Source: Trichodesmium erythraeum IMS101 (GTDB taxonomy: Bacteria > Cyanobacteriota > Cyanobacteriia > Cyanobacteriales > Microcoleaceae). Taken from it: a stretch of 32,000 nucleotides of DNA. Both the position numbers and the translations under genes were made by a program. Below are positions 1 through 30,154 of the stretch, piece by piece. Where the stretch lies: assembly GCF_000014265.1 (NCBI RefSeq), contig NC_008312.1, positions 4,050,001 through 4,082,000 of the forward strand. The letters are read 5' to 3'. The notes below the pieces were generated by a model that saw only the letters and a list, made by a program, of their open reading frames with translations, searched no databases and was not told the origin of the DNA. Every line of letters starts with the position of its first letter. Within the stretch, counting starts at the first letter, position 1.

Positions 1-3000
1 TCAAATATTTTTTTGTGTTTGAGCGATCGCTAAATTTAGCCATCAGCCAGGAGCTGGAAAAATTGAGGAAAAAATTTATCTCAAATAATAAAGTCGTTTC
101 TCAGCCGTCAGCTTTTTGACCGAAAATTATCAGATGAAAAATTAGGCAAAAAATTAGATAAAAAATTAGACAAAAAATTAGAAGTACTCAGCCAGATATT
201 ACGGAAAATTCTCAGATGAAAAATTAGATAAAAAATTAGGCAAAAAATCAGAAATACTCAGACAGATATTTCGGTTCAAATATTTTTTTGTGTTTGAGCG
301 ATCGCTAATTTTAGCCATCAGCTAAGAGCTGGAAAAATTGAGGAAAAAATTTATCTCAAATAATAAAGTTGTTTCTCAAGCATCAGCTTTTTGACCGAAA
401 ATTCTCAGATGAAAAATTAGATGAAAAATTAGATGAAAAATTAGATGAAAAATTAGACAAAAAAATAAAAAGTACTCAGCCAGATATTACGGAAAATTCT
501 CAGATGAAAAATTAGATAAAAATTAGGCAAAAAATCAGAAATACTCAGACAGATATTTCCGTTCAAATATTTTTTCGTGTTTGAGCGATCGCTAATTTTA
601 GCCATTAGCTAAGAGCTGGAAAAATTGAGGAAAAAATTTATCTCAAATAATAAAGCCATTTCTCAGGCATCAGCTTTTTGACCGAAAATTATCAGATGAA
701 AAATTAGGCAAAAAATTAGATAAAAAATTAGGCAAAAAACCAGAAGTACTCAGCCAGATATTACGGAAAATTCTCAGATGAAAAATTAGATAAAAAATTA
801 GATAAAAATTAGAAGTACTCAGACAGATATTTCGGTTCAAATATTTTTTTGTGTTTGAGCGATCGCTAATTTTAGCCATCAGCTAAGAGCTGGAAAAATT
901 GAGGAAAAAATTTATCTCAAATAATAAAGTTGTTTCTCAAGCATCAGCTTTTTGACCGAAAATTCTCAGATGAAAAATTAGATGAAAAATTAGATGAAAA
1001 ATTAGATGAAAAATTAGACAAAAAAATAAAAAGTACTCAGCCAGATATTACGGAAAATTCTCAGATGAAAAATTAGATAAAAATTAGGCAAAAAATCAGA
1101 AATACTCAGACAGATATTTCCGTTCAAATATTTTTTCGTGTTTGAGCGATCGCTAATTTTAGCCATTAGCTAAGAGCTGGAAAAATTGAGGAAAAAATTT
1201 ATCTCAAATAATAAAGCCATTTCTCAGGCATCAGCTTTTTGACCGAAAATTATCAGATGAAAAATTAGGCAAAAAATTAGATAAAAAATTAGGCAAAAAA
1301 CCAGAAGTACTCAGCCAGATATTACGGAAAATTCTCAGATGAAAAATTAGATAAAAAATTAGATAAAAATTAGAAGTACTCAGACAGATATTTCGGTTCA
1401 AATATTTTTTTGTGTTTGAGCGATCGCTAATTTTAGCCATCAGCCAGGAGCTGGAAAAATTAAGGAAAAAATTTATCTCAAATAATAAAGCCATTTCTCA
1501 GGCATCAGCTTTTTGACCGAAAATTATCAGATGAAAAATTAGGCAAAAAATTAGAAGTACTCAGCCAGATATTACGGAAAATTCTCAGATGAAAAATTAG
1601 ATAAAAAATTAGATAAAAATTAGAAGTACTCAGACAGATATTTCCGTTCAAATATTTTTTTGTGTTTGAGCGATCGCTAAATTTAGCCATTAGCTAAGAG
1701 CTGGAAAAATTGAGGAAAAAATTTATCTCAAATATATTAATAAGTCATTTCTCAGCCGCCAGCTTTTTGACCGAAAATTCTCAGATGAAAAATTAGGCAA
1801 AAAATTAGATAAAAAATTAGGCAAAAAACCAGAAGTACTCAGCCAGATATTACGGAAAATTCTCAGATGAAAAATTAGATAAAAATTAGAAGTACTCAGA
1901 CAGATATTTCGGTTCAAATATTTTTTTGTGTTTGAGCGATCGCTAATTTTAGCCATCAGCTAAGAGCTGGAAAAATTGAGGAAAAAATTTATCTCAAATA
2001 ATAAAGTCATTTCTCAGCCGTCAGCTTTTTGACCGAAAATTCTCAGATGAAAAATTAGGCAAAAAACCAGAAGTACTCAGACAGATATTACGGAAAATTC
2101 TCAGATGAAAAATTAGATAAAAAATTAGGCAAAAAACCAGAAATACTCAGACAGATATTTCCGTTCAAATATTTTTTTGTGTTTGAGCGATCGCTAATTT
2201 TAGCCATCAGCTAAGAGGTGGAAAAATTGAGGAAAAAATTTATCTCAAATAATAAAGTCGTTTCTCAAGCATCAGCTTTTTGACGGAAAATTCTCAGATG
2301 AAAAATTAGGCAAAAAATTAGATAAAAAATTAGGCAAAAAACCAGAAGTACTCAGCCAGATATTACGGAAAATTCTCAGATGAAAAATTAGATAAAAATT
2401 AGAAGTACTCAGACAGATATTTCGGTTCAAATATTTTTTTGTGTTTGAGCGATCGCTAATTTTAGCCATCAGCTAAGAGCTGGAAAAATTGAGGAAAAAA
2501 TTTATCTCAAATAATAAAGTCATTTCTCAGCCGTCAGCTTTTTGACCGAAAATTCTCAGATGAAAAATTAGGCAAAAAACCAGAAGTACTCAGACAGATA
2601 TTACGGAAAATTCTCAGATGAAAAATTAGATAAAAAATTAGGCAAAAAACCAGAAATACTCAGACAGATATTTCCGTTCAAATATTTTTTTGTGTTTGAG
2701 CGATCGCTAATTTTAGCCATCAGCTAAGAGGTGGAAAAATTGAGGAAAAAATTTATCTCAAATAATAAAGTCGTTTCTCAAGCATCAGCTTTTTGACGGA
2801 AAATTCTCAGATGAAAAATTAGGCAAAAAATTAGATAAAAAATTAGGCAAAAAACCAGAAGTACTCAGCCAGATATTACGGAAAATTCTCAGATGAAAAA
2901 TTAGATAAAAAATTAGGCAAAAAATCAGAAATACTCAGACAGATATTTCCGTTCAAATGTTTTTTTCGTGTTTGAGCGATCGCTAAATTTAGCCATTAGC

Positions 3001-3341
3001 TAAGAGCTGGAAAAATTGAGGAAAAAATTTATCTCAAATATATTAATAAGTCATTTCTCAGCCGCCAGCTTTTTGACGGAAAATTATCAGATAAAAAATT
3101 AGGCAAAAAATTAGATAAAAAATTAGACAAAAAAATCAAAAGTACTCAGCCAGATATTACGGAAAATTCTCAGATGAAAAATTAGATAAAAAATTAGGCA
3201 AAAAACCAGAAGTACTCAGACAGATATTTCGGTTCAAATATTTTTTCGTGTTTGAGCGATCGCTAATTTTAGCCATCAGCTAAGAGCTGGAAAAATTGAG
3301 GAAAAAATTTATCTCAAATAATAAAGTCGTTTCTCAGCCGT
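1..3341. repeat. Satellite-like nested tandem array, 13 HIP1-anchored units of 250-287 bp, truncated by the window start
   Basis: The context GTTTGAGCGATCGCTAA recurs with the HIP1 core starting at 23, 298, 585, 859, 1146, 1420, 1670, 1936, 2187, 2449, 2700, 2976 and 3256 (spacings 275/287/274/287/274/250/266/251/262/251/276/280). Each unit has a conserved head of about 105 bp plus two paralogous half-units (GAAAATTCTCAGATGAAAAATTAG...TACTCAG[A/C]CAGATATT[A/T]C[G/C]G). Half-unit length varies through 1-5 copies of a 12-13-nt microrepeat (AAAAATTAG + 3 nt). By eye 298-858 is identical to 859-1419, and 1936 to about 2400 is identical to 2449 to about 2913 (dimer-level higher-order repeats). The array ends near 3341. 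Confidence 0.95.
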
Positions 3342-7413: not shown

Positions 7414-8691
<1,278 letters not shown>

Positions 8692-9339
8692 TTAGCTACT
8701 TCCTTATAGATCATGATTTTACTTAGCTTAACTAATTTTTTATAATTTTGCAAATCTTTATCAGGAGTGTTAATACGACAAAATTTATTTTGACATTCAT
8801 ACCAATATGTGTTATGTGTATATTTTTTAAATAATTAGGATTAATTAGGAATAAACCCACAAACTTTGTTTTTTTTTCTATATATCTAAAAAAATATAGA
8901 ATTTATTGTAAAAAGCTGGTTCACGGGTGCTTTCGGTGAAAATATAGGATTTAAATATAGAATTGGTGATGAAAGCTAGGAGCTTCTCACGCCTTTGAAA
9001 TTTAGTCAGAGTAAAATTTAACTTCAAAGTTAAGACTTCGTACCTTATGACTGGAATTATGTACACATTTCAGGTTTATGAGGCATGCCCAGGGGGAGAA
9101 GATGCCTATACTAGATGGTTTTCCCAAAATTAACTGTAGAAAGGGATCGAAGTTGTTCAGATTTGACTTGTAACCAAACTAGCATTAGAAAATATTTCTT
9201 TTTTTATGCATAACAATTGAGTCAAATAAACGAAACACAAAAATTTTTCGGCTTTTTTTTTAATAGATCCTAAATGATATCAAGTGTAATTATAGGGGTT
9301 TTCAGAAAGATGGAATGCACTTTTTTCAACAAAAACCCT

Positions 9340-9366
9340 TGTAGGGAGTTTCAGACAACGTCCCTA
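9340..9366 (-). terminator. Candidate intrinsic terminator downstream of the orthocaspase-like gene
   Basis: GTAGGGA (9340-9346) / TCCCTAC (9360-9366) with a 13-nt loop. On the minus strand the stem is followed by AAGGGTTTTTGTTG. It lies about 145 bp after the stop at 9509. Confidence 0.4.
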
Positions 9367-9508
9367 CTGTGGTATACTTAAGTAAAAACTGCTATACAAT
9401 ACTTTTCTCATAGCAATTGCTTTCAAATCCCAGTTTTCTAAGAAAAAGCCAGGAAAATTTATAAATATTTGCAGTCTAAATAGGTAGTGCTATATTAATA
9501 TTTTCTAG

Positions 9509-11926
9509 TCAAAGTGTTTTTTTAACAACTCGATAAACGAAACTCAGAGTTGCCCAACTATTAATATCGAGAGCATAATTATCCGTTGATAACTCTAAAG
9601 ATTGAGTAGCTAATTGACTAGCACTCTGTAAATCTTGTAAAGTTGCTTGTGCGACTGCTAAAGGATTCAATATTTCTTTAATTAGCTGATCATCTCTAAT
9701 TTGAAACACCTTTCCATCAACAAGAGTTGCAATTGTTTTCTTAAATGGTTGATGGCTACAAATAATTAGGCTTTCTTCTAATCCTTCAGAACCTATTACC
9801 CTCCATCCCAAAGATTTTGTATTTTTAGAAGAATTATTAATAACTGGAGGTATATTTACACTATCTCCCGGAGAAACAATTAACTCTGTTAGTGAAAGTT
9901 GAGGATCATTCTCAAGTTGATTAGATATAGTTGGATCGACAACAAAAAAGCGCCCACTACTGTCTAAAATGACTAACATAAAATAGACTGGGCGATCGCC
10001 ATAATTATATAATTGATATTGAATTCGACTACCAATGGGTAAAGTTCCTAATGAATTACTAATTTCAGATTTGTCTATATCTTCATTGATATCAGTTAAA
10101 AATTTTGTGGTTCCATCCCTAACCCCCAAAGTTTCTCGCTTAAGAATTAACCTTGCATTTGGAGTAACAGTAGCCAAGTTAGCTCTAAGTTTGATTTGAG
10201 TAGATCCTTCATTCTTAGTTAAGCGTAGCATCTTAGCTGCCAGTAAGGTTTCCAATGGGGAACGTAACCTTTCTATTGCTCCCTTGACTGCTTCTCCTTT
10301 TTCTCCTATAGTCTTAGGTATAAGTACCTTGCCCAGAGAAAATAGAGCATAATGACCCTGAGAAGTAGAGGGTAAAATAGCAGAAGAACTTTGAGCGATA
10401 GTTGTTTCTTCTACTCGACTAAATATATAATCAGCGGCTTGTGTATCTGCTACTACGGTAACTTTAGGTATTGCTGAAAAACCACTGGTAGCATCTACCC
10501 GCTCTATTCTTGACATATTATGGTCTAGAGCTATCATCAAATTCAGAGATTGAGGTAAAACTCTAATCTTTTCTTGTACCAGAGATCCTGTCAAAAGTTG
10601 AAGATTAGGAAGAAGATTTTGAGAAGTTTTTTGTGTTTGGTCGTTGATATTTTCCTGGTTTATATCTGATAATTGTTGTGAATTATTAGTGTCAATGATA
10701 ACGGAAGCTTTTGCTTTTAAGCCATTTCGATTCTGAATTTGTAATTCAAAGCTTAAGTCTAAATCAAAATCAGGAAAAGTTTTGAATAGAGAATAAGATG
10801 TAACCGTATCAAGAATACTAACTGGTAATCCTCCTAACCATAGGTTTGCTGTTTTGCCGTTATCTTCTACTGAAGTGATTACACCCGTAGCAGAGGGTAA
10901 TAAAGGATTAAAGATATTTTGATTACTGATAGCTACTGGAATTATAGTAGGTACTTTTGTAGATTGAGCAATGTTCTGTTGTTTTGCTTGTTTAAACTCT
11001 GGTTGCTGATTAACTCCAGTTATTTGTTCTACCTCGCCAGCAGCTTGTGAAAAACTAATTTGTAGTCTGGTGGCGGGGGCTGTAGACCATAAATTTTGGG
11101 TAAGAGCATAAGTAAATAAACCAGAGCTAAAACCATTCCAGTCAGCTTCAGTAGCAAATTGGTTTTGTTGGCTAGCCTTAAGAACTAAGCCTTTGAGTTG
11201 ACTTTCATAAATTTCCTGTTCTCCTAAAATATTTTGTTGATGTCGCAGTTGCATTTGCATTGCTTTCTCTTTCATATTGATTTGCTCTGTAGTCAAACTA
11301 GGTCGAGAGCGAATTCTGAGATTACCTTGCAAATTTTTACCAGGATATACATAGCTAGTATCTAATATAGTTACTACTTTTTTCGTAGGGAGCGATCGCA
11401 ATAATAACCAGAGAGTCTCTTCTAAAACATCATTTATTTCTGCGCCCTCATTATTCGAAGCTATACCATCTATTGGAACTAGACTATTTTGAAAAATTAA
11501 ATTTGAGGTACTTAATTCATTCTGTTTATTTTGATCAATCATCTTAGTCACACGACTACCATAGCCACTAAAATGAAACACAACCAAGTCATCTGGTTTA
11601 GCTTGATCAGTTAAATGACTAATAAAAGCTGTTTCTATATTTTCCCTAGTAGCTTGTTCATTTGTGAGAGTCAGAATATCAGCAGGTAAAAAACCAAACC
11701 GATGAATTAGCAATTCCCGTTGCATCTCCACATCTGTAACACACCCAGACAGAGATGCATTTAGATATTCATTAATACCTACTAAGAATGCTAATTTACC
11801 TCCTGTAGTTTGAGCTAAGGCTTCTGAATAATAATTTTGGAGGCGCCACCACCCTGCTTGATTGATTCCCAATACTCCTAGGGCCAAACTAGCCCTTTGC
11901 AGAAATTCCCGCCGCTTTAATCCCAT
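9509..11926 (-). CDS. Tat-signal peptidase C14 (orthocaspase) homologue with Tyr/Ser in place of the catalytic His/Cys, plus a ~550-aa C-terminal region of unknown function
   Basis: 805-aa ORF. The N-terminus MGLKRREFLQRASLALGVLG is a twin-arginine signal. The p20-like block is LAFLVGINEY...GCVTDVEMQRELLIHRFGF...ATRENI...VVFHFSGYGSRV. The usual SGHG His is Tyr122 (codon 11561-11563). The usual D-x-C-H-S-G motif is ILDTSYVYPG, with Ser191 (codon 11354-11356). Confidence 0.85.
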   Translation of the reverse strand: MGLKRREFLQRASLALGVLGINQAGWWRLQNYYSEALAQTTGGKLAFLVGINEYLNASLSGCVTDVEMQRELLIHRFGFLPADILTLTNEQATRENIETAFISHLTDQAKPDDLVVFHFSGYGSRVTKMIDQNKQNELSTSNLIFQNSLVPIDGIASNNEGAEINDVLEETLWLLLRSLPTKKVVTILDTSYVYPGKNLQGNLRIRSRPSLTTEQINMKEKAMQMQLRHQQNILGEQEIYESQLKGLVLKASQQNQFATEADWNGFSSGLFTYALTQNLWSTAPATRLQISFSQAAGEVEQITGVNQQPEFKQAKQQNIAQSTKVPTIIPVAISNQNIFNPLLPSATGVITSVEDNGKTANLWLGGLPVSILDTVTSYSLFKTFPDFDLDLSFELQIQNRNGLKAKASVIIDTNNSQQLSDINQENINDQTQKTSQNLLPNLQLLTGSLVQEKIRVLPQSLNLMIALDHNMSRIERVDATSGFSAIPKVTVVADTQAADYIFSRVEETTIAQSSSAILPSTSQGHYALFSLGKVLIPKTIGEKGEAVKGAIERLRSPLETLLAAKMLRLTKNEGSTQIKLRANLATVTPNARLILKRETLGVRDGTTKFLTDINEDIDKSEISNSLGTLPIGSRIQYQLYNYGDRPVYFMLVILDSSGRFFVVDPTISNQLENDPQLSLTELIVSPGDSVNIPPVINNSSKNTKSLGWRVIGSEGLEESLIICSHQPFKKTIATLVDGKVFQIRDDQLIKEILNPLAVAQATLQDLQSASQLATQSLELSTDNYALDINSWATLSFVYRVVKKTL

Positions 11927-12548
11927 GCTTTTTCCTTAATGTCTTACCTTAAACTAAGTCAAGTCAGAACTTTACATAACAACACTATGATTAATTTTCT
12001 ATATAATTGACCCAAAAATCAGGTCAATAGCCTTCCCTTGGATAGGGGATGAAAAGAATATTCGATCAAGTATTTAGGGGCACTTGATGCTGGTGCCCAA
12101 ATTTCTATTTCAATTTTTCATCCGGGTCAGTGTCCACCTTAAGAGTTATAATATATACTAATTGAGACAATAGTATAAAACAATTATAATTATATTCAAC
12201 AGTTAATTTATTACTTTAAATTAACTTGATTTTGGCAGTTGAACTACTGACAAAGCCAGAGTTTCTTTAACTAACATCAGTGAGGTGACGGGTTAAAAGC
12301 TTTCCTTTAAATAAAGTCTAGCTCTTGTAACCCGCCTCTGGTTTATAGTTATTTACTATCTAGTGGAGGTTTCACCGGAAAAGAAATTTTATCAGTTTCT
12401 CAGATAAGTTCTTTAATCAACTTTTTTCTTGATATATCTGAGTTTGAGCCATTATTACCAATATTTGCGTATTTCCCTTGCCCGAACAGAGCAATGATAA
12501 ACACTTTGGCACCTGAAAAATTTCTCAGTAGGGTTAGCTTAACTTCCT

Positions 12549-13715
12549 TTAGATTTTCATAGCCTTAGCTAACTCGGCTGCTACTTCTGGTCGTGAAAAT
12601 TCTGGTGGTGGCAACTCACCCCGACGTAACATTTCTCGCACTTTTGTCCCTGATAGATGAATTCTTTCTTCTCCTGTACTTGGACTTGTTTTACTTGTGG
12701 CCATACCTTGGGTACGAGTACAGTAAAAAGCGTGTTCAAACTTCATTGGGACAATATCTAACTCTCTAGGTTCAAACTCATCAAAAATATATTGAGCATC
12801 ATAGGTTCCATAATAATCTCCAACTCCAGCATGATCTCGTCCAACAATGAAGTGAGTACAACCATAGTTTTTCCGCACCAAAGCATGAAAAATTGCCTCC
12901 CGCGGGCCAGCATAACGCATTGCTGAGGGATTAATGGCCATCATGACACGATTTTCAGGAAAGTATTTTTCTAACATAATCTCGTAGCAACGCATCCTGA
13001 CATCAGCAGGAATATCATCTGATTTAGTAGCACCAACCAAAGGATGTAAAAATAAACCGTCTACTACTTCTAAAGCACATTTTTGAATATATTCGTGGGC
13101 ACGATGGATAGGGTTACGGGTTTGGAAACCAACTATTGTCTTCCAATTTTTTTCCTGAAATAGTTTTCTGGACTCAGCTGGATCTATTTGATATTTGGGA
13201 AATAATGGGTGAGGATGACGTTCTAATAACCAAACTGGGCCTGCTAAGTTGACTGGGCCAGCATCATACAGGACTTTCACTCCTGGGTGTTTGATTTCTT
13301 GTGTACTATAAACATTGATTGCCTCATGAGCTTTGTTGTAGTGGAACTTTTGAGTTAATTCTAAAACTCCAGCAAATTCTCCTTCTGGAGAAGACAGACC
13401 TACCCAGCTTCCTTCTTTTATTGAATCTGCTACTTCTTCTGATACTGATAATGTTACAGGTATACTCCAAGGCAGACCATTTTTAAGACGCATATCAACA
13501 ACTACACTTTCATAGTCATCTTTGTCCATAAAGCCATTGAGGGGACTAAAACCTCCTATAGCTATCATTTCTAAGTCTGAAAGAGCCCGTTTGTCTAGTT
13601 GTATCTTTGGCAAGCTTTCAGCTTTTTCGATAAATTCTTGTCGTTCTGCTGGTGTGGCAATTCGATTAATTAGATGGCCACCGTGTGCTGGTATACCATT
13701 GAGATGCTGATTCAA
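12549..13715 (-). CDS. sat: Sulfate adenylyltransferase (ATP sulfurylase)
   Basis: 388-aa ORF with the family motifs [13 protein letters not shown] and [11 protein letters not shown]. The length is typical of the homo-oligomeric Sat type. Confidence 0.95.
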
Positions 13716-21417: not shown

Positions 21418-21595
21418 GGGAAGGTTGGTAAAAGGTTGCTAATGAGCTTGTCGTTTTTTTGCTTGTTTGTGGGCTTTGACGTTTGCAAGTTTGCTTCCAT
21501 CACTACAAGTCCCTAGAACGTTTATGTCAATATCTACGCCTATAACTGCTCGTTTTTTAGGGGTAGACTTGGGCTGATATTCGTATTTATTTTTT

Positions 21596-22001
21596 GCGTT
21601 GATTAAAAAGTCATGAGTATAAGCGAGTTAACGCAACCTTACTTTTATAATATCAAAAAAAATCTCGTTTGCCAAGGGAATTTCTTTGGGAATTTCGTTT
21701 TTCTCAAGGTTAACTAAGGTTAATTGATTCTTGGGATAATTGGGGTCGTTTTTTTTTGCGTTGATTAAAAAGTCATGAGTATAAGCGAGTTAACCCCACC
21801 TTGCTTTTATAATATCAAAAAAAATCTCGTTTGCCAAGGGAATTTCTTTGGGAATTTCGTTTTTCTCAAGGTTAACTAAGGTTAATTGATTCTTGGGATA
21901 ATCGGGGTCGTTTTTTTTGCGTTGATTAAAAAGTCATAAGTATATGCGAGTTCACCCCACCATACTTTTATAATATCAAAAAAAATCTCGTTTGCCAAGA
22001 T
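21596..22001. repeat. Tandem repeat of ~162 bp, about 2.5 copies
   Basis: GCGTTGATTAAAAAGTCAT[G/A]AGTAT starts at 21596, 21758 and 21919 (periods 162 and 161). The third copy diverges after TTTGCCAAG near 22000. Confidence 0.9.
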
Positions 22002-22394: not shown

Positions 22395-24116
22395 TTAATT
22401 ACTAGAAGTTACTCCTAAAATACATTTTGCTTCTAGTAAAACTAAGTTATGAATATCTAGAACTCGACATTTTTCTGGCACATTTAATAAGGTGGGAGTT
22501 ATGCCATTTTCCATCTGACTTTTAACTAGGTTGGCGGCGGTATAATTTAATTGTTGAAGACGATGGTTTTTTCTGACATATTCTAAGGTTAATGCTTGAG
22601 AATCTAATAACCAAAAGTCAATTTTATATTTGTGGATAATTTTTTTGACTTCTTCTAGGTTCGGACTATATTGGGCTTGGATTAAATCTTTGGCTCGTTG
22701 TTTGATTTGATTATAATATCCTTGGTGATAAGGTAAAGCATATTCGGAACTTACTAATATTGAACGTTTGGCAAATGTGGGAATATTATTAGCTTCTAAT
22801 GCTAAGGAGGCGATGCGAATATCTGAGGGTTGTTGGGCTAAATATTCATAAAGTTGGGGTGCTTTTCCGACTACATAATTGGTTACGGGAAAGTTGTTGG
22901 TTAGGGCTGGATATATAATAATTAAGGTTAATACTATATATATAGATGTAGATATGGAGATAGCTCTTATTTTTTGGAGTGGTTGGTTTTTGGATGAATT
23001 GTTGAGGAGATGGAGCTTTTTTCTGATTAATTCTATGATTAATGTGAAGGCTATTCCTCCTGCTAAAGCCATGATTATTCTGAGGCTATGTTGACTGTAA
23101 CGACTGGGATGATGTAGTCGAAATAATAATAGGTGGGCGGCTATAAATATTCCGGTTGATGCTAAGGCTAATTCTGGTAAAAGGATTATTTTGTTGGTGA
23201 TTTTTTGGGTTATATTTTTTTTGTTGAAGCTTAAGAAAATGAATAATAATAATCCTGCCCAAACTTGGGGGGGAAGAAAAGATTGGGATAGCCATTCTGG
23301 AGGAATAATGCCGGAGCGATCGCCTGTTAACCAAAAGTCAAAGTTGTTGTTTGAAAAGAAGGATGCTCTACCACCGGGGAAAAATTCTGGTAGTTTTTTG
23401 GCTTGGGTTAATGTAATGATTGGGCTATATTCGGAGGTGTTTAAAGCGTAGGGTAAAAGTATGAGGAATGCTGTGGTTAAACCTATGGTTAATATGGTGA
23501 GTTTTTGTTGGTTTGGGAGGTGGAGAAAGTCTAAGGTTAGGAGGGCGGCACTGAGGAAAACTCCTTGGGGATAAAATAATCCTAGAAGGGTAATTGTTAT
23601 GATTATTCCTAGGGAGGATTTTTTGAGGAAGTAATGGAGAAATCCTAGGAATAAGGGATAGAAAAATGCTCTGGGGGTGCCGGAGATGAGGTCGTCTTTT
23701 AGCCAAAGATTTTGATTTAAAAATAATGTACTGAGAAATCCTGCGAGTGGGATGGGTAATATTTGTATTGCTACTTTGAAACAGTAGGCGGTTGTGATTA
23801 ATCCTAATATTATTGGCAGGATTTTATTTAGTAATAAGGGTGGAATTTTGATGAGGGAAAATAGTTTATAAAGGTGGGTATATCCTTGGGGGGCTACTGA
23901 TTGAAAATAGTCGGCAATAATGTCGTTGGGAAAAAGTTCGGGGTTGAGAAATTTTGCCATCCAAAAGATGTGGGACCGGGCGTCGTCTTGGACTATATAT
24001 TGATGACTAAGGGCGGGAATTATTCCTAAAATTCCACAGGTTATGGCTAGGGTGAGGCTGAGATAAAACCAGAGTTTGACTGGGGTTAATGTGGTTAAAG
24101 TTTTGGCTGGGTTCAT
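22395..24116 (-). CDS. Polytopic integral membrane protein, possibly a GT-C-type glycosyltransferase
   Basis: 573-aa ORF with about 12 hydrophobic helices. An acidic motif (VQDDARSH) follows TM1, as in GT-C enzymes. The ~170-aa soluble C-terminal domain is unassigned, and the function is not established. Confidence 0.8.
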   Translation of the reverse strand: MNPAKTLTTLTPVKLWFYLSLTLAITCGILGIIPALSHQYIVQDDARSHIFWMAKFLNPELFPNDIIADYFQSVAPQGYTHLYKLFSLIKIPPLLLNKILPIILGLITTAYCFKVAIQILPIPLAGFLSTLFLNQNLWLKDDLISGTPRAFFYPLFLGFLHYFLKKSSLGIIITITLLGLFYPQGVFLSAALLTLDFLHLPNQQKLTILTIGLTTAFLILLPYALNTSEYSPIITLTQAKKLPEFFPGGRASFFSNNNFDFWLTGDRSGIIPPEWLSQSFLPPQVWAGLLLFIFLSFNKKNITQKITNKIILLPELALASTGIFIAAHLLLFRLHHPSRYSQHSLRIIMALAGGIAFTLIIELIRKKLHLLNNSSKNQPLQKIRAISISTSIYIVLTLIIIYPALTNNFPVTNYVVGKAPQLYEYLAQQPSDIRIASLALEANNIPTFAKRSILVSSEYALPYHQGYYNQIKQRAKDLIQAQYSPNLEEVKKIIHKYKIDFWLLDSQALTLEYVRKNHRLQQLNYTAANLVKSQMENGITPTLLNVPEKCRVLDIHNLVLLEAKCILGVTSSN

Positions 24117-24307
24117 TTTGGTAAATGGGGAGGTGGGCGGCTGGAGGTATGGGGTTGGGGCTGTTTTTTGAGTAGTTATGGTTTTACATGATCTTTTAGG
24201 TTGGATATTAAGACTGGTTGCTTGGGTTTGGGCCCTCTGGTATGGTCTTGTCTATTTTATTGGGTGTTGGGGGCGATCGTAAATGTGTGTCAGAACTGTG
24301 GGAATGG

Positions 24308-27300
24308 CTATGTTGCATATTGCTGTAATATCTTTTTTGCCCAGATCTGTAGTTGTTCGTCTGAGTCGTTTTCGGCTCTGTCTTGTAATAGTGGGATGGT
24401 TTGGGGATGGTCTGGGTATTGTTTGACTATTGCTTCTAGTGCTGTTTGTCGAGGGTTGTCTTGAATTTCATGTATACGTTCAAAGGGATCGTTGAGGGCG
24501 TTGTCATAAAATATTTCAAAAGTTCCGGGCTCGTGTTTCCAACCAGTTGCTATTTGTCCGACGGCTTCAGTTCGCACCCGCCAACTTTCATCAGACAGAA
24601 CCCTTTGTTTGAGTAATTCTAAAATTCCGGGCTCGTGTTTCCAAACAGTTGCTATTTGTTCGACGGCTTCAGTTCGCACAAACTCACTTTCATCAGACAC
24701 AACCCTTGGTTTGAGTAATTCTAAAATTCCGGGCTCGTGTTTCCAACCAGTTACTATTTGTCGGAGGGCTTCAGTTCGCACCTGCCAACTTTCATCAGAC
24801 ACAACCCTTTGTTTGAGTAGTTCTAAAATTCCGGGCTCGTGTTTCCAACCAGTTGCTATTTGTCGGAGGGCTTCAGTTCGCACCCACCAACTTTCATCAG
24901 ACACAACCCTTTCTTTGAGTAATTCTAAAATTCCGGGCTCGTGTTTCCAAGCAGTTGCTATTTGTCGGAGGGCTTCACGTCGCACATCCGAATTTTCATC
25001 AGACACAACCCATTGTTTGAGTAGTTCTAAAATTCCGGGCTCGTGTTTCCAACCAGTTGCTATTTGTCGGACGGCTTCAGTTCGCACCCACCAACTTTCA
25101 TCAGACACAACCCTTTGTTTGAGTAATTCTAAAATTCCGGGCTCGTGTTTCCAAGCAGTTGCTATTTGTCGGAGGGCTTCAGTTCGCACAGACTCACTAT
25201 CATCAGACACAACCCATTGTTTGAGTAGTTCTAAAATTCCGGGCTCGTGTTTCCAACTAGTTGCTATTTGTCGGAGGGCTTCAGTTCGCACATCCAAGTT
25301 TTCATCAGACACAACCCATTGTTTGAGTAATTCTAAAATTCCGGGCTCGTGTTTCCAACTAGTTGCTATTTGTTCGAGTACTTCACGTCGCACATCCGAA
25401 TTTTCATTAGACACAACCCATTGTTTGAGTAATTCTAAAATTCTGGGCTCGTGTTTCCAACCAGTTGCTATTTGTTCGAGTGCTTCACGTCGCACATCCA
25501 AATTTTCATCAGACACAACCCATTGTTTGAGTAATTCTAAAATTCCGGGCTCGTGTTTCCAACCAGTTGCTATTTGTCGGACGGCTTCAGTTCGCACATC
25601 CGAATTTTCATTAGACACAACCCATTGTTTGAGTAATTCTAAAATTCCGGGCTCGTGTTTCCAACCAGTTGCTATTTGTTCGAGTGCTTCACGTCGCACA
25701 TACTCACTTTCATCAGACACAACCCTTTCTTTGAGTAATTCTAAAATTCCGGGCTCGTGTTTCCAAGCAGTTGCTATTTGTCGGAGGGCTACACCTCGTA
25801 CATTCAAGTCATCATCAGACACAACTCTTTCTTTGAGTAATTCTAAAATTCCGGGCTCGTGTTTCCAACCAGTTGCTATTTGTCCGACGGCTTCAGTTCG
25901 CACAAACCAACTTTCATCAGACACAACCCATTGTTTGAGTAATTCTAAAATTCCGGGCTCGTGTTTCCAACCAGTTGCTATTTGTCCGACGGCTTCAGTT
26001 CGCACAAACCAACTTTCATCAGACACAACCCATTGTTTGAGTAATTCTAAAATTCCGGGCTCGTGTTTCCAACCAGTTGCTATTTGTCGGACGGCTTCAG
26101 TTCGCACATCCGAGTCGTCATCAGACACAGCCCTTTGTTTGAGTAATTCTAAAATTCCGGGCTCGTGTTTCCAACCAGTTGCTATTTGTCGGAGGGCTTC
26201 AGTTCGCACCTGCCAACTATCATCAGACACAACCCTTTGTTTGAGTAATTCTAAAATTCCGGGCTCGTGTTTCCAACCAGTTGCTATTTGTTCGAGTGCT
26301 TCACGTCGCACAGACTCACTATCATCAGACACAACCCATTGTTTGAGTAATTCTAAAATTCCGGGCTCGTGTTTCCAACCAGTTGCTATTTGTCGGAGGG
26401 CTTCAGTTCGCACTTGCCAACTATCATCAGACACAACCCATTGTTTGAGTAATTCTAAAATTCCGGGCTCGTGTTTCCAACCAGTTGCTATTTGTCGGAC
26501 GGCTTCAGTTCGCACTTGCCAACTATCATCAGACACAACCCTTTGTTTGAGTAATTCTAAAATTCCGGGCTCGTGTTTCCAACCAGTTGCTATTTGTCGG
26601 ACGGCTTCAGTTCGCACAGACTCACTATCATCAGACACAACCCATTGTTTGAGTAATTCTAAAATTCCGGGCTCGTGTTTCCAACCAGTTGCTATTTGTC
26701 GGACGGCTTCAGTTCGCACAGACTCACTATCATCAGACACAACCCATTGTTTGAGTAATTCTAAAATTCCGGGCTCGTGTTTCCAAACAGTTGCTATTTG
26801 TTCGACGGCTTCACGTCGCACAGACTCACTATCATCAGACACAGCCCATTGTTTGAGTAATTCTAAAATTCCCGGCTCATGTTTCCAACCAGTTGCTATT
26901 TGTCGGAGGGCTTCAGTTCGCACATGCCAACTTTCATTAGACACAACCCATTGTTTGAGTAATTCTAAAATTCCCGGCTCATGTTTCCAACCAGTTGCTA
27001 TTTGTCGGAGGGCTTCAGTTCGCACATCCAAATTTTCATCAGACACAACCCATTGTTTGAGTAATTCTAAAATTCCGGGCTCGTGTTTCCAACCAGTTGC
27101 TATTTGTCGGACGGCTTCAGTTCGCACAGACTCACTATCATCAGACACAACCCATTGTTTGAGTAATTCTAAAATTCCGGGCTCGTGTTTCCAACCGGTA
27201 GCTATTTGTCGGACGGCTTCAGTTCGCACAAACCAACTTTCATCAGACACAACCCTTTCTTTAAGCCAAGCATAAGTTGAAGAGTCATCCCTCCAGGATG

Positions 27301-29536
27301 TAGCCACTATTTCCACAGCTTGAGTACGAATTTCACGAACTAACTCTGCATCTTCATCATAAGATTCATAAAAATAACCAAGGTCATGCCCAGTCAAACC
27401 TTTTAACCTATTTAATAACCGAGAACTCACATCACCAATACCCTGAAGACTCCTAACTTCAAACAAACACTTGCCCGCCAAAAATAAATTCTGAAACTTT
27501 TCCTCTTCCCCATCTTTTTCCATCAAATAACTAATAATATCTCCCACAAACTTAGCATCTATCATCCCAGCAATTAACCGCAATACTTCATGCCATTTTT
27601 CATCCCGCCAATGGTTACCGAAAACATCATTTATTAACCCATCTTTTCCCAAAGTTTGTGTTTCTTTAAACTGCCAAACAAAACTCCAAGCACAGAAATA
27701 TTCCAAAAAGGTTCGATGCACAAAAGCATAATATCCACCCCCAACAAAACACAAAATAAAATTACGAACCCGCAACTGTTCTATCAACGCCCTAGCCACA
27801 GTTGTCACATCATTAATATCTACACTTTCTAGATAATCTTTAATGATCTTTTTTAAACTATTTTCATCAATCAAATTACCAGCCAAACCTTCTTTATTCT
27901 GTTGCATAAAATCAGCTACTCGGCGCAAAATTTCTTGCTTATCTTTATAGTCAATAGTTATCGGGTCAATCTTAGCATCAACTAATGTTCTTTCCATATC
28001 CCATTGCTGTAATAAAATCAGAGAAGCTTGATTATAAAGTTCCGCCCTATCTCTGGGCAATTCTTGATGACGATTTAAAATAGCCATCATAGTTAATAAA
28101 AAAGGATTTTCCGACAATTGCTTAATAGCTGAATAATCATTAATTGCTCGTTTCAATTTTTCTCTTTTCCGCTCTTTTTCTCGCTCATCTTGATAAGTTA
28201 AATCATGCCAAGTTTGAATAAAATTATCAATTTGTTCTGACTCTAAATTTTGCAACATAAAATGATAAAATTCAGCATCCCGGAGTTGTTGTGGCTGATA
28301 ACCAATTACTCTAGAAGTAACAATAACTCGGACATTTTTATAGTCATTTGTAAATCGATGAATATCAGTAATTATTTCCTTTCTTTTAGCAGGTTCAAAA
28401 ACTTCATCCAACCCATCAAACATCACAATAGCATCACCATTTTGTAGTTTTGCATAAAGTTCTTGTTGAGGTAAATGGCAAGTTACACCGCTACCTTTTT
28501 CCAGAAAATCTAGAAAATTTTGGCATTTATTAGTCTCATAATTTCTCACATAAGTCTGTAGTTCAATTAATAGAGGAATTGGTTTTGAAGGCAAATCTAT
28601 TAGAGGTAATTCTGCCCATTCTAAAGCGATATATTGTAATAAAGTAGATTTGCCAGAACCAGGGTCTCCCAGAATAACTAAATATTTATATTCGGTATTT
28701 TCTATTAGTTCTAAAACCGAGCGAACTGGCTGTTCTAAATATCTGCGTCGGTCAGCTTCCAATTGTTCTGGAGAAAATTCTATTTCTAACTGCCCAGTCT
28801 CTTTTAATTGTTGGAGATATTCTTTAGGAACTTCATACAATTGAGGCATAAATTCTTGAGATTCCCGAACATTTTGAGGAATAAACATCTGCCAGAGTTT
28901 CAGTTCATTATAGGTATAACCACTAGTATCTAAACTTTCTAATTTGAGATTTCCATATCGTTCTTGGATTCCTTCTTGGTATTTTTCGAGGTCAAATTCT
29001 GGTGTAATTTTATAATTTTGATTTGCTATTTTATCGAGGTTTTGTGAATCTAATATTTTCCGTAATTCATCAGAATTTATCCGAATTGCTTGAACTTTTT
29101 TCCCATATCTTTTTGCCACTCTTAACCAGTCAAAATCAGGTGGCAAAGTTGGAATAATTTCCTTGGCAACATCAGCTAATATCTTAATATCTACAATTTT
29201 TATATTATTATCAAAAGCACTACCCAAAGTTTCTCGAACTGACTTCTTTTTGAGAAATTGTTTGAAAGGTGGAATATATTTCTTTAGCTGGTTTTCCTCT
29301 AAATCTGCATCTTCCAATTCTTGCTGTGCTAATTCTAAAAATTCTTTAGTTGCTTTTCCTATAGCTTCTTGCAAAGGTTTTTTATTTGTTAAATCTTTAA
29401 TAACATTACCTAAGCTAGTTTTAAAGAAGTCTTTAATACAATCTTTAGCAGCATCTTTAGCTAAATCTTCCAGAATAGGTTTAAATACAAACCCAACCCC
29501 TTGAGTCACTCCCCAAACAATTAACCAGTCAATCAT
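24308..29536 (-). CDS. NLR-like STAND NTPase: unknown N-terminal domain + NACHT + 27 HEAT-type repeats
   Basis: 1742-aa ORF with RBS AAAGGATGAAATAATTATG. Walker A is LGDPGSGKST (aa 289-298, Lys codon 28649-28651). Walker B is IVMFDGLDEV (aa 370-379). The repeats carry the SD-x3-VR-xEA-xxQIA signature typical of PBS-lyase/HEAT-like repeats. Confidence 0.95.
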   Translation of the reverse strand: MIDWLIVWGVTQGVGFVFKPILEDLAKDAAKDCIKDFFKTSLGNVIKDLTNKKPLQEAIGKATKEFLELAQQELEDADLEENQLKKYIPPFKQFLKKKSVRETLGSAFDNNIKIVDIKILADVAKEIIPTLPPDFDWLRVAKRYGKKVQAIRINSDELRKILDSQNLDKIANQNYKITPEFDLEKYQEGIQERYGNLKLESLDTSGYTYNELKLWQMFIPQNVRESQEFMPQLYEVPKEYLQQLKETGQLEIEFSPEQLEADRRRYLEQPVRSVLELIENTEYKYLVILGDPGSGKSTLLQYIALEWAELPLIDLPSKPIPLLIELQTYVRNYETNKCQNFLDFLEKGSGVTCHLPQQELYAKLQNGDAIVMFDGLDEVFEPAKRKEIITDIHRFTNDYKNVRVIVTSRVIGYQPQQLRDAEFYHFMLQNLESEQIDNFIQTWHDLTYQDEREKERKREKLKRAINDYSAIKQLSENPFLLTMMAILNRHQELPRDRAELYNQASLILLQQWDMERTLVDAKIDPITIDYKDKQEILRRVADFMQQNKEGLAGNLIDENSLKKIIKDYLESVDINDVTTVARALIEQLRVRNFILCFVGGGYYAFVHRTFLEYFCAWSFVWQFKETQTLGKDGLINDVFGNHWRDEKWHEVLRLIAGMIDAKFVGDIISYLMEKDGEEEKFQNLFLAGKCLFEVRSLQGIGDVSSRLLNRLKGLTGHDLGYFYESYDEDAELVREIRTQAVEIVATSWRDDSSTYAWLKERVVSDESWFVRTEAVRQIATGWKHEPGILELLKQWVVSDDSESVRTEAVRQIATGWKHEPGILELLKQWVVSDENLDVRTEALRQIATGWKHEPGILELLKQWVVSNESWHVRTEALRQIATGWKHEPGILELLKQWAVSDDSESVRREAVEQIATVWKHEPGILELLKQWVVSDDSESVRTEAVRQIATGWKHEPGILELLKQWVVSDDSESVRTEAVRQIATGWKHEPGILELLKQRVVSDDSWQVRTEAVRQIATGWKHEPGILELLKQWVVSDDSWQVRTEALRQIATGWKHEPGILELLKQWVVSDDSESVRREALEQIATGWKHEPGILELLKQRVVSDDSWQVRTEALRQIATGWKHEPGILELLKQRAVSDDDSDVRTEAVRQIATGWKHEPGILELLKQWVVSDESWFVRTEAVGQIATGWKHEPGILELLKQWVVSDESWFVRTEAVGQIATGWKHEPGILELLKERVVSDDDLNVRGVALRQIATAWKHEPGILELLKERVVSDESEYVRREALEQIATGWKHEPGILELLKQWVVSNENSDVRTEAVRQIATGWKHEPGILELLKQWVVSDENLDVRREALEQIATGWKHEPRILELLKQWVVSNENSDVRREVLEQIATSWKHEPGILELLKQWVVSDENLDVRTEALRQIATSWKHEPGILELLKQWVVSDDSESVRTEALRQIATAWKHEPGILELLKQRVVSDESWWVRTEAVRQIATGWKHEPGILELLKQWVVSDENSDVRREALRQIATAWKHEPGILELLKERVVSDESWWVRTEALRQIATGWKHEPGILELLKQRVVSDESWQVRTEALRQIVTGWKHEPGILELLKPRVVSDESEFVRTEAVEQIATVWKHEPGILELLKQRVLSDESWRVRTEAVGQIATGWKHEPGTFEIFYDNALNDPFERIHEIQDNPRQTALEAIVKQYPDHPQTIPLLQDRAENDSDEQLQIWAKKILQQYAT
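24524..27262 (-). repeat. 27 tandem 102-bp (34-aa) intragenic repeats
   Basis: The unit is WKHEPGILELLKQWVVSDxxxxVRTEAxRQIATG. WKHEP occurs 27 times, and I counted the 102-bp period directly (CCGGGCTCGTG at 24627, 24729, ...). Most of each unit is nucleotide-identical between copies. Confidence 0.95.
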
Positions 29537-30154
29537 AATTATTTCATCCTTTATATGTTAGTTATTTGTTATTATATATGAATATTTTATTTGGTCAATA
29601 TCTGGAATTATATCCATGTTTGTTAAGTACTAATTTTATCTTCTTACCTCCTGCTGAGAGTCAGCTATTTTTCTCGTGGCGATCGCGTCAACAATAAACC
29701 ATAAAAAAAATCAAAAAATTAACTGAGATAACCTGATATTTTAGTGTGTTATATTAGGATATTTTAATTAACTTTAAAATACATTTATAGCGTTGAGTAA
29801 ATTACCTATTAAAGAAAGAGCCAGCGCAAAAAAATAATTGCACTAGCTCCTAGGGTTCAGCTAATTATGATAAACCCCAAGGGATAGGAAATGGAGAAAA
29901 AGCAGAAAATCTGTTTCTCAATTTAAAGCTTCCAACAAATCCACATTAACCCAAGGGTTGGAGGTTTTTATGTGTTTCTAAATTATATAATAACATATTT
30001 TTTGAATTTTTTAACCAATCCATATTAACTTCAGGGATGGGGAGACATTCTTAGAGACAGCCACCTAAAATCTATCTCCCATAAATCCGATTTCTAACAG
30101 CTTTGAAGCAATGAAAAAATTATTAACAAGTGAGTATTTAAAATATCAAGTATT

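Follow-up and report, generated by a model that had tools for sequence, protein, structure and literature searches.

The question raised by this locus is whether one very large gene of Trichodesmium erythraeum IMS101 encodes an uncharacterised sensing or defence system, as a preliminary description of the DNA had proposed, or a member of a group that is already on record. The window analysed is the 32,000-nucleotide stretch from position 4,050,001 to 4,082,000 of contig NC_008312.1 (assembly GCF_000014265.1), and all coordinates given here count from its first letter. The gene is the longest open reading frame (ORF) of the window; it lies on the minus strand at 24308..29536, starts with ATG and encodes 1742 amino acids. 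We found that it is a very large, otherwise typical member of a common, catalogued cyanobacterial family of NLR-like proteins and not a new system. With a probability of roughly 55%, we read its product as a single-polypeptide NLR-type STAND switch, in which a diversifying surface of HEAT repeats would bind a non-self cue, the NACHT domain would oligomerise and the N-terminal NNH2 domain would be activated. A literature search returned no paper mentioning Tery_2632.

The three-part NLR/STAND layout that had been proposed for the protein was confirmed by Pfam matches, by the signature motif and by the predicted fold of the NACHT module. The first ten residues, MIDWLIVWGV, are the same as the conserved N-terminus of the family in the alignment of homologues. 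From the ORF as a whole to its last segment, the parts are:

24308..29536, minus strand: complete ORF of 1742 amino acids plus stop, an NLR-like STAND protein of the order NNH2, NACHT, 27 HEAT units and C-terminal cap (ORF list and translation)
28892..29536, minus strand: NNH2 domain region, aa 1-215, with the uniformly hydrophobic first 18 residues that the family conserves (Pfam PF22734)
28685..28891, minus strand: pre-NACHT segment, aa 216-284, the region of the FIPQNVRE... motif (nearly invariant columns in two family alignments)
28205..28684, minus strand: NACHT nucleotide-binding domain, aa 285-444 (Pfam PF05729)
28646..28669, minus strand: Walker A motif GDPGSGKS, aa 290-297 (motif scan)
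28400..28420, minus strand: Walker B motif with NACHT signature, FDGLDEV, aa 373-379 (DGLDE fits D[GAS]hDE)
27278..28204, minus strand: predicted HD1, winged-helix and HD2 subdomains with a degenerate HEAT N-cap, aa 445-753 (AlphaFold2 model and Foldseek)
24524..27277, minus strand: 27 HEAT units of 34 aa (102 nt) each, aa 754-1671 (WKHEP anchors, Tandem Repeats Finder, HEAT_2)
24311..24523, minus strand: C-terminal cap, aa 1672-1742, NDPF...NPRQ.ALE...HPQT.PLL.DRAENDxDE (consensus of 33 family members), which looks like degenerate terminal HEAT units

The P-loop and the FDGLDEV motif that had been read from the letters were both found at the expected spots. A P-loop of the form G..G.GK[ST] was present in 119 of the 120 homologues checked, as GDPGSGKS in 116 of them, and DGLDE (aa 374-378) was present in all 120. 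The D[GAS]hDE form of the Walker B signature sets NACHT domains apart from other STAND ATPases (Kibby et al., bioRxiv 10.1101/2022.07.19.500537). The Pfam NACHT profile matched aa 285-444 significantly, with 38.3 bits against a gathering score of 26.7. For aa 255-800, an AlphaFold2 (AF2) model based on 33 family members reached a pLDDT of 81 and a pTM of 0.75 and showed a nucleotide-binding domain (NBD) with an alpha/beta core of five strands; in the separate model of NNH2 described below, the pre-NACHT segment has low confidence. When the model of aa 255-800 was compared with the PDB by Foldseek, every one of the top 30 matches was to an animal NACHT NLR, at 500-640 aligned columns and E-values between 5e-9 and 4e-5; NLRP9, NLRP7, NOD2, NLRP3, NLRP2 and NLRP14 were among them. 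Because of the model and these alignments, aa 445-753 are assigned to helical domain 1 (HD1), the winged-helix domain (WHD) and helical domain 2 (HD2), with a degenerate HEAT cap; the "helical linker" of about 370 aa seen at first is thus mostly part of the NACHT module. Within the segment lies the invariant motif AFVHRTFLEYFCA with H607, and in the family alignment the fragment columns H353, R354, F356, E358, F360 and C361, equivalent to aa 607-615, are invariant. On its predicted fold, the unit NBD-HD1-WHD-HD2 is a bona fide NACHT ATPase module. By sequence, searches of the PDB with the NACHT-plus-linker and repeat-block queries gave no matches, even at E 10 for the repeats.

The order NBD-HD1-WHD-HD2 is the same as in the animal proteins NLRP3, NLRP7, NLRP9 and NOD2, and so, putatively, is the histidine motif of the WHD. 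We presume that FVHRTFLEYF with H607 sits where NLRs have their regulatory winged-helix histidine, H607 being a candidate counterpart of NLRC4 H443. The animal proteins differ from the IMS101 protein in sequence (11-16% identity), in having a leucine-rich repeat (LRR) sensor instead of HEAT repeats and in carrying PYD or CARD domains instead of NNH2.

The repeat block had been described as 27 nearly identical HEAT-type units of 34 aa over 918 aa, and this proved exact and far beyond what chance would give. The WKHEP anchors recur 27 times at a spacing of precisely 34 aa and without indels over aa 754-1671; Tandem Repeats Finder reported a period of 102, 26.9 copies, 91% matches and 0% indels at 24515-27262; and HEAT_2 (PF13646) matched 19 stretches with an E-value of 6e-106. 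In the 34-aa unit, helix A occupies positions 1-11, a turn positions 12-14, helix B positions 15-28 and a linker positions 29-34, the boundaries being taken from DSSP of the aa 255-800 model (H498-510, H514-527, H534-544; offset 254). The high internal conservation (HIC) claimed for the array was borne out by a mean pairwise DNA identity of 0.90 between units and by a Psim of 0.868 over all 27 units, the published threshold for HIC repeats being Psim >= 0.70 (PMC13449251). Units 2, 6 and 7 are identical, as are units 13 and 14, and 24 of the 27 are distinct. All the features that define the NACHT clade, NNH2 and HEAT_2 and that could be tested here are present in the protein. Two further observations concern the DNA of the array. 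The region 24000-27000 has a G+C content of 0.44-0.45 compared with 0.29-0.39 around it, and the GC skew flips its sign across the gene. An antisense ORF of 888 aa (24609..27275, plus strand) overlies the array and is probably a stop-free reverse frame of the 102-nt repeat and not a gene.

Differences among the 27 units fell mainly at positions 7, 8, 13-16, 19, 22, 23 and 28 (A-B turn and helix B) and were almost wholly non-synonymous, and per-position entropy and codon tables showed mostly one codon in nearly all units at the remaining positions. Positions 15/16, 19 and 22/23 probably lie on one face of helix B, as judged from their spacing of 3-4 residues. The ratio of non-synonymous to synonymous differences (pN/pS) was 4.0 at the 10 variable codons of the IMS101 array, a value inflated by the post hoc choice of these sites, and 0.26 at the other 24. 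When the sites defined in IMS101 were applied a priori to 12 independent arrays, pN/pS exceeded 1 in 8 of these, and the other 24 codons were always below 1. Between units, differences at the first, second and third codon positions numbered 1340, 1109 and 621; over the 753 non-repeat codons, compared with the orthologue in the metagenome locus L001, they numbered 4, 1 and 8. Within 16 homologues of other genera, the most variable positions on average were 14, 15, 16 and 19, followed by 4, 8, 13 and 23.

In a four-gamete test, all four combinations occurred in 30 of the 45 pairs of variable sites, a pattern that fits shuffling both within units and from one unit to another. An identical 71-aa C-terminal cap is found in three other T. 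erythraeum assemblies, which differ from IMS101 in their last units, mostly at the variable positions (W/R at 8 and F/R at 16 are examples), differences that could include short-read chimeras. A diversity-generating retroelement was considered as the source of variation and rejected, the codon changes not being restricted to adenines.

The number of units deserves separate scrutiny, since every short-read assembly of the same locus either breaks in the array (L067-L069) or carries 2 units (L001), and many contigs of other family members likewise stop just inside it. The syntenic gene in L001, a MEGAHIT metagenome assembly, encodes 892 aa, which is exactly 25 units fewer, and has unit 1 fused to unit 26. 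It might be argued from the shorter orthologue, from the assemblies that break and from the existence of transposase-disrupted or split family members that the 27-unit length is partly an artefact of assembly or expansion, or that the gene is a decaying and inert repeat expansion. We regard this as very unlikely. A frame of 5.2 kb is open in a genome of about 33% G+C, the array keeps a perfect register throughout, with 0% indels, purifying constraint acts on the 24 framework codons, whose pN/pS is 0.26, and an independent Okeania genome holds a copy with 28 units. With 24 of 27 units distinct, collapse in short reads is likelier than spurious expansion, and the junction of unit 1 with unit 26 is the pattern expected when a k-mer assembler collapses an array. 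We therefore read the 892-aa version as an assembly collapse, real length polymorphism remaining the alternative.

This combination of features resembles that of the fungal HIC NLRs, whose repeats are WD40 (HET-E/HNWD), ANK or TPR, with one HEAT case in Podospora (Dyrka et al. 2014; PMC13449251; for bacteria, bioRxiv 10.1101/2020.01.06.895854). The HIC pattern has also been described for WD40 and TPR repeats of bacterial NLRs (PMC13449251; bioRxiv 10.1101/2020.01.06.895854). The fungal proteins and the IMS101 protein alike join a NACHT domain to superstructure-forming repeats with a Psim above 0.7, vary at few surface positions, bear signs of unit reshuffling and have arrays that cannot be assembled from short reads. 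They differ in the repeat type, 34-aa PBS-type HEAT units in IMS101 as against ANK, TPR, WD40 and LRR in the cross-kingdom survey (PMC13449251). They differ as well in their effectors, the fungal HeLo, HET and PNP_UDP domains being unrelated to NNH2, and in that repeat-number polymorphism between strains is found in the fungi, the candidate for it at the IMS101 locus being the 892-aa short-read allele.

Given this shared evolutionary signature of internal conservation, variable positions and unit shuffling, together with the enrichment of the family in multicellular cyanobacteria, one might see in the protein a receptor for kin recognition or allorecognition in a filamentous organism that forms colonies, comparable to the HET-E/HNWD incompatibility NLRs, with a repeat repertoire that separates self from non-self filaments. 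A receptor in the cytoplasm could work in this way only if foreign cytoplasm reached it, and we know of no cell fusion between Trichodesmium filaments; nor is a polymorphic partner locus evident. We rate the proposal as highly improbable.

The N-terminal part had been described as about 280 aa with no recognisable motif. This did not hold, as aa 25-204 belong to a named Pfam family, NNH2 (NACHT N-terminal helical domain 2, PF22734), with 197.6 bits against a cut-off of 27 and an E-value of 1.8e-58. The NNH class is listed, with no function assigned, among the domains of bacterial NACHT proteins (Kibby et al.). The AF2 model of NNH2 is all-helical, with a core (aa 50-165) of pLDDT 84-92. Foldseek searches with it returned nothing below E 0.2 in the PDB or in the viral structure library BFVD, and assignments to HeLo, CC, 4HB, death-fold or enzyme families, which we considered, found no support in these comparisons. 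A profile search of 1.84 billion representatives gave 537 matches. Of the best 150, nearly all have NNH2 at the very start of the protein (residues 1 to about 218). Of nine NNH2 proteins sampled, eight also had a NACHT match; HEAT repeats accompanied it in most, and TPRs were added in one. The remaining protein consisted of NNH2 and HEAT only. The idea that NNH2 is a shared homotypic adaptor was rejected for now, as a domain-only word-index search and the exhaustive profile search place it essentially only at the N-terminus of NACHT proteins; nor did NNH2-only genes serve as evidence for an adaptor, one of the two inspected being interrupted by a transposase and the other seemingly split or decayed.

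Three NNH2 loci are recorded here for their own sake. In L065 (6001-10591), an NNH2 gene is broken by a Tn5-type transposase; a 468-aa HEAT protein is among the fragments downstream, and a gene for a ParE toxin is close by. In L064, a 7.9-Mb Nostocales genome, an NNH2-only ORF of 282 aa is followed by a 640-aa ORF without a Pfam match, the pair lying beside a nif cluster and next to XisH and XisI genes. In P0308 (1290 aa), NNH2 lies far from the N-terminus, at aa 572-789, as in no other of the representatives listed, and the preceding 570 aa or so had no Pfam match at E 1e-5 or better.

The conserved columns of NNH2 are mostly hydrophobic or aromatic, and the alignments contain no invariant Cys, His or Ser, a composition that speaks against enzymatic activity. 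Nowhere is the protein more hydrophobic than in its first 18 residues, MIDWLIVWGVTQGVGFVF (mean hydrophobicity 0.69, hydrophobic moment 0.11), which are conserved throughout the family. Because of the absence of invariant residues of catalytic type, the lack of known fold relatives and the restriction to the N-terminus of NACHT proteins, we view NNH2 as a candidate non-enzymatic output domain, more likely to act as an effector or scaffold activated by proximity than to be an enzyme or a homotypic adaptor shared among proteins, and predict that it is an orphan fold tied to NACHT. In function, we would liken it to the CC, HeLo and 4HB domains of the plant CC-NLR ZAR1, fungal HET-S and MLKL, which we take to be all-helical, non-enzymatic and equipped with a hydrophobic N-terminus; the likeness is functional only. 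No similarity in fold or sequence between those domains and NNH2 was detected, Foldseek against the PDB giving no match below E 1, and the hydrophobic stretch of NNH2, unlike theirs, is short and glycine-rich and is modelled as coil. Membrane attack by NNH2 through this conserved segment is a reasonable guess, though no more than that. A bolder proposal would make NNH2 a kind of cell-death or output domain that has so far gone unrecognised, acting without enzymatic activity and having its own fold, perhaps by inserting its hydrophobic N-terminus into membranes after NACHT clustering, and the 34-aa HEAT cassettes of the family a shuffled repertoire with fixed hypervariable positions 13-16, 19, 22 and 23; we hold it as tentative and, taken whole, doubtful.

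The combination of NACHT domain, HEAT array and N-terminal domain, which the preliminary description had not known from any characterised system, turned out to be common in filamentous cyanobacteria. A search with the 821 non-repeat residues yielded more than 2600 significant proteins, most of them from filamentous cyanobacteria. The best 120 of these share 52-98% identity and the NNH2-NACHT-HEAT layout and have a typical length of about 1200 aa. The genera represented include Trichodesmium, Okeania, Dapis, Hydrocoleum, Oscillatoria, Microcoleus, Nostoc, Anabaena (PCC 7120), Calothrix and Tolypothrix. Homologues that include the repeat region keep the 34-aa period and the high internal conservation, usually with 5-15 units, and genomes carry several paralogues (at least 5 in Okeania sp. 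KiyG1). A protein of Okeania sp. SIO2C9 (L014, 8001-13370) is larger than that of IMS101, with 1789 aa and 28 HEAT units, so the latter stands at the top of the size range and is not unique. The repeats of the Okeania protein have a much higher synonymous divergence (pS 0.22) and a pN/pS of 0.41; judged by these values, the array appears older and less homogenised than that of IMS101. In Okeania sp. KiyG1 (L004), a 770-aa NNH2-NACHT protein without a HEAT array (7660-9972) is encoded directly upstream of a 1204-aa NNH2-NACHT-HEAT paralogue (10001-13615). Close members with 47-54% identity also occur in two metagenome-assembled genomes labelled non-cyanobacterial, a Desulfobacteraceae (L052) and an Isosphaeraceae (P0193), occurrences that may reflect horizontal transfer or binning contamination.

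The surroundings of these genes vary. The homologue of PCC 7120 lies next to NDH-1/ChpX and carboxysome genes, that of Nostoc punctiforme (L006) inside the nif region beside nifB, and an Okeania homologue next to a truncated paralogue; near the Oscillatoria princeps homologue, a Type ISP restriction enzyme is encoded (one locus). Among 83 flanking ORFs at 14 loci, response regulators, PAS, GGDEF and histidine-kinase domains, transporters and Uma2 were commonest, and PADLOC matches were few and generic. Neighbourhoods thus differ across genera, and the conserved housekeeping synteny that had been named as a point on which the receptor reading could fall was not observed.

Both the repeat class and the neighbours of the family bear on a further explanation, in which the array, being of the E/Z (phycobilisome-lyase-like) type, binds some component of the host cell, for instance a phycobiliprotein or a protein that handles pigments, and NACHT reports its perturbation by stress, nutrients or phage takeover. 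The repeats are indeed of the class found in phycobilisome (PBS) lyases and NblB, as seen in the HEAT_2 match and in a partial match to NblB of 112.6 bits; that match lies far under the NCBIfam cut-off of 300 bits and reflects the repeat type only, so the IMS101 protein is not an NblB equivalog, and it differs in its 34-aa unit and in the joining of the repeats to a STAND ATPase. The family is nearly confined to cyanobacteria, some loci lie amid photosynthesis, carbon and nitrogen genes, as in PCC 7120 and Nostoc punctiforme, and GUN4-NACHT proteins have been proposed as monitors of photosynthetic status (Kibby et al.). A conserved host ligand, however, would not predict diversification at fixed surface positions within a protein and between strains, nor many divergent paralogues per genome, and the neighbourhoods are not conserved across genera. 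We therefore consider a guard or physiological sensor of this kind unlikely, if less so than a decaying array or an allorecognition receptor. The alphaRep artificial binders derive from PBS-type HEAT repeats and have their variability on the second helix of the unit, as does the IMS101 array.

On the reading that we favour, the variable stripe of the array would be a ligand-binding surface, diversified by duplication, conversion and shuffling of units and by selection, as for the fungal HIC-repeat NLRs. The trigger would be a cue of danger or of non-self origin, with a component of a cyanophage the likeliest candidate; its binding would relieve autoinhibition. Nucleotide exchange and oligomerisation of NACHT would then cluster the NNH2 domains, NNH2 would act as the output domain, and the infected cell of the filament would be expected to stop growing or die. 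Bacterial NACHT proteins confer defence against phages and need the Walker A lysine to do so, and repeat-type C-termini have been proposed as sensors of the antigen-receptor type (Kibby et al.).

Several results weigh against this interpretation. Neither the window nor the 14 homologous loci have the context of a defence island, the neighbours being housekeeping, signalling and transport genes, and no system model of PADLOC-DB 2.0 was matched by the protein. The marginal partial matches obtained with PADLOC were PDC-M02B on one repeat and mad8 on the P-loop (E 0.001). The earlier suggestion of a candidate defence system is thus not upheld by context, and a role in defence is something that we infer rather than observe. 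Indeed, the function of NNH2-NACHT-HEAT proteins is inferred throughout. Over all 34 codons, pN/pS was 1.5-1.8 with a bootstrap 5-95% interval of 0.76-2.97 and so did not exceed 1 significantly; the 10 variable codons were a post hoc choice made in IMS101, and at these sites the ratio fell below 1 in 4 of the 12 independent arrays. The NNH2 model is only moderately confident overall (pLDDT 70) and draws residues 8-18 as coil and not as helix, and the N-terminal hydrophobic segment stays under the standard transmembrane threshold (maximum of the Kyte-Doolittle 19-mer, 1.38).

Comparison with the bNACHT antiphage proteins places the IMS101 protein among relatives with a similar plan. They likewise combine a NACHT domain of the D[GAS]hDE type with a winged-helix extension in a tripartite single gene, their architectures include both the NNH class and HEAT repeats, and cyanobacteria are noted as having the most paralogues (Kibby et al.). 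The tested set, as given in the part of that preprint available here, mentions NNH1, HEAT, LRR, REase and TIR and reports no NNH2-NACHT-HEAT protein (bioRxiv 10.1101/2022.07.19.500537). None of the PADLOC models of the validated bNACHT systems matches the IMS101 protein. The characterised bNACHT proteins have nucleases or similar effectors, whereas NNH2 is a domain to which no effector chemistry is assigned.

Close to the gene, two signals were noted upstream of the ATG:

29571..29598, minus strand: promoter-like site TTGACC-16-TATAAT, ending 35 nt upstream of the ATG, with 11 of 12 consensus positions
29851-29816, minus strand: terminator-like hairpin between the upstream gamma-glutamyltransferase (GGT) gene and the promoter-like site

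The promoter-like site is the top consensus match in the region scanned and is a consensus match only; the hairpin would separate the NLR-like gene from the GGT gene. On its other side, the gene is followed by Tery_2631, encoding a 573-aa membrane protein that has no Pfam or PADLOC match and does not resemble the PMT_2 and DUF6798 membrane proteins encoded farther upstream in L001. A homologue of Tery_2631 adjoins the NLR-like gene only in close Trichodesmium relatives and not in other family members. The suggestion that an effector might sit in the adjacent membrane protein was therefore dropped, Tery_2631 having no family match and being absent beside the other members. The companion statement that no separate effector gene is evident stood, since no conserved partner was found in the window or at the 14 homologous loci.

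Further on in the window lie genes for a short-chain dehydrogenase/reductase (SDR), 6-phosphogluconolactonase, ATP sulfurylase, a caspase-family protein, AdoHcy hydrolase, ExoD and COP23. The SDR and the caspase-family protein, like Tery_2631, are identical to known proteins of IMS101. The caspase-family (Peptidase_C14) protein of 805 aa is encoded at 9509-11926 on the minus strand, 12 kb from the NLR-like gene; its Pfam match covers aa 44-314 only, and the C-terminal 490 aa or so are without a match. Housekeeping genes lie in between, no caspase gene is adjacent at the other loci, and we found no link between this protein and the NLR-like gene. RNA genes or tRNA-linked islands were not found in the window. 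A non-coding tandem array occupies positions 1-3340 and runs off the left end, with a period of about 274 bp (251-280), at least 12 copies, 86% match and an AT skew of about +0.2; it holds GCGATCGC and nested 12-nt AGATAAAAAATT micro-repeats and has no ORF of 100 aa or more. A second tandem repeat, of 162 bp in 2.5 copies with 95% match, lies at 21590-21999, within the 1.5-kb gap that separates the SDR gene from the gene for the membrane protein.

For specialists the architecture is unsurprising; the IMS101 gene adds no new class of system, and it is a clean, fully resolved example of a large family that makes a good experimental target. What goes beyond the catalogue is the family-wide map of hypervariable HEAT positions, the tie between NNH2 and NACHT and the loss of the arrays in short-read assemblies. 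As such arrays are collapsed or broken in these assemblies, their diversity is under-counted in catalogues derived from metagenomes. NNH2 offers an output domain without known fold relatives, and the hypervariable HEAT positions may be determinants of specificity or a scaffold for the engineering of binders. If the bolder proposal for NNH2 and the shuffled HEAT cassettes were true, filamentous cyanobacteria would have fast-evolving innate receptors against cyanophage, a HEAT-based counterpart of the fungal HIC-NLRs and of the plant CC-NLR resistosomes. Trichodesmium is a major marine nitrogen fixer whose blooms collapse through poorly understood programmes of cell death, and it is plausible that NLR-like sensors of this family are among the triggers of these programmes.

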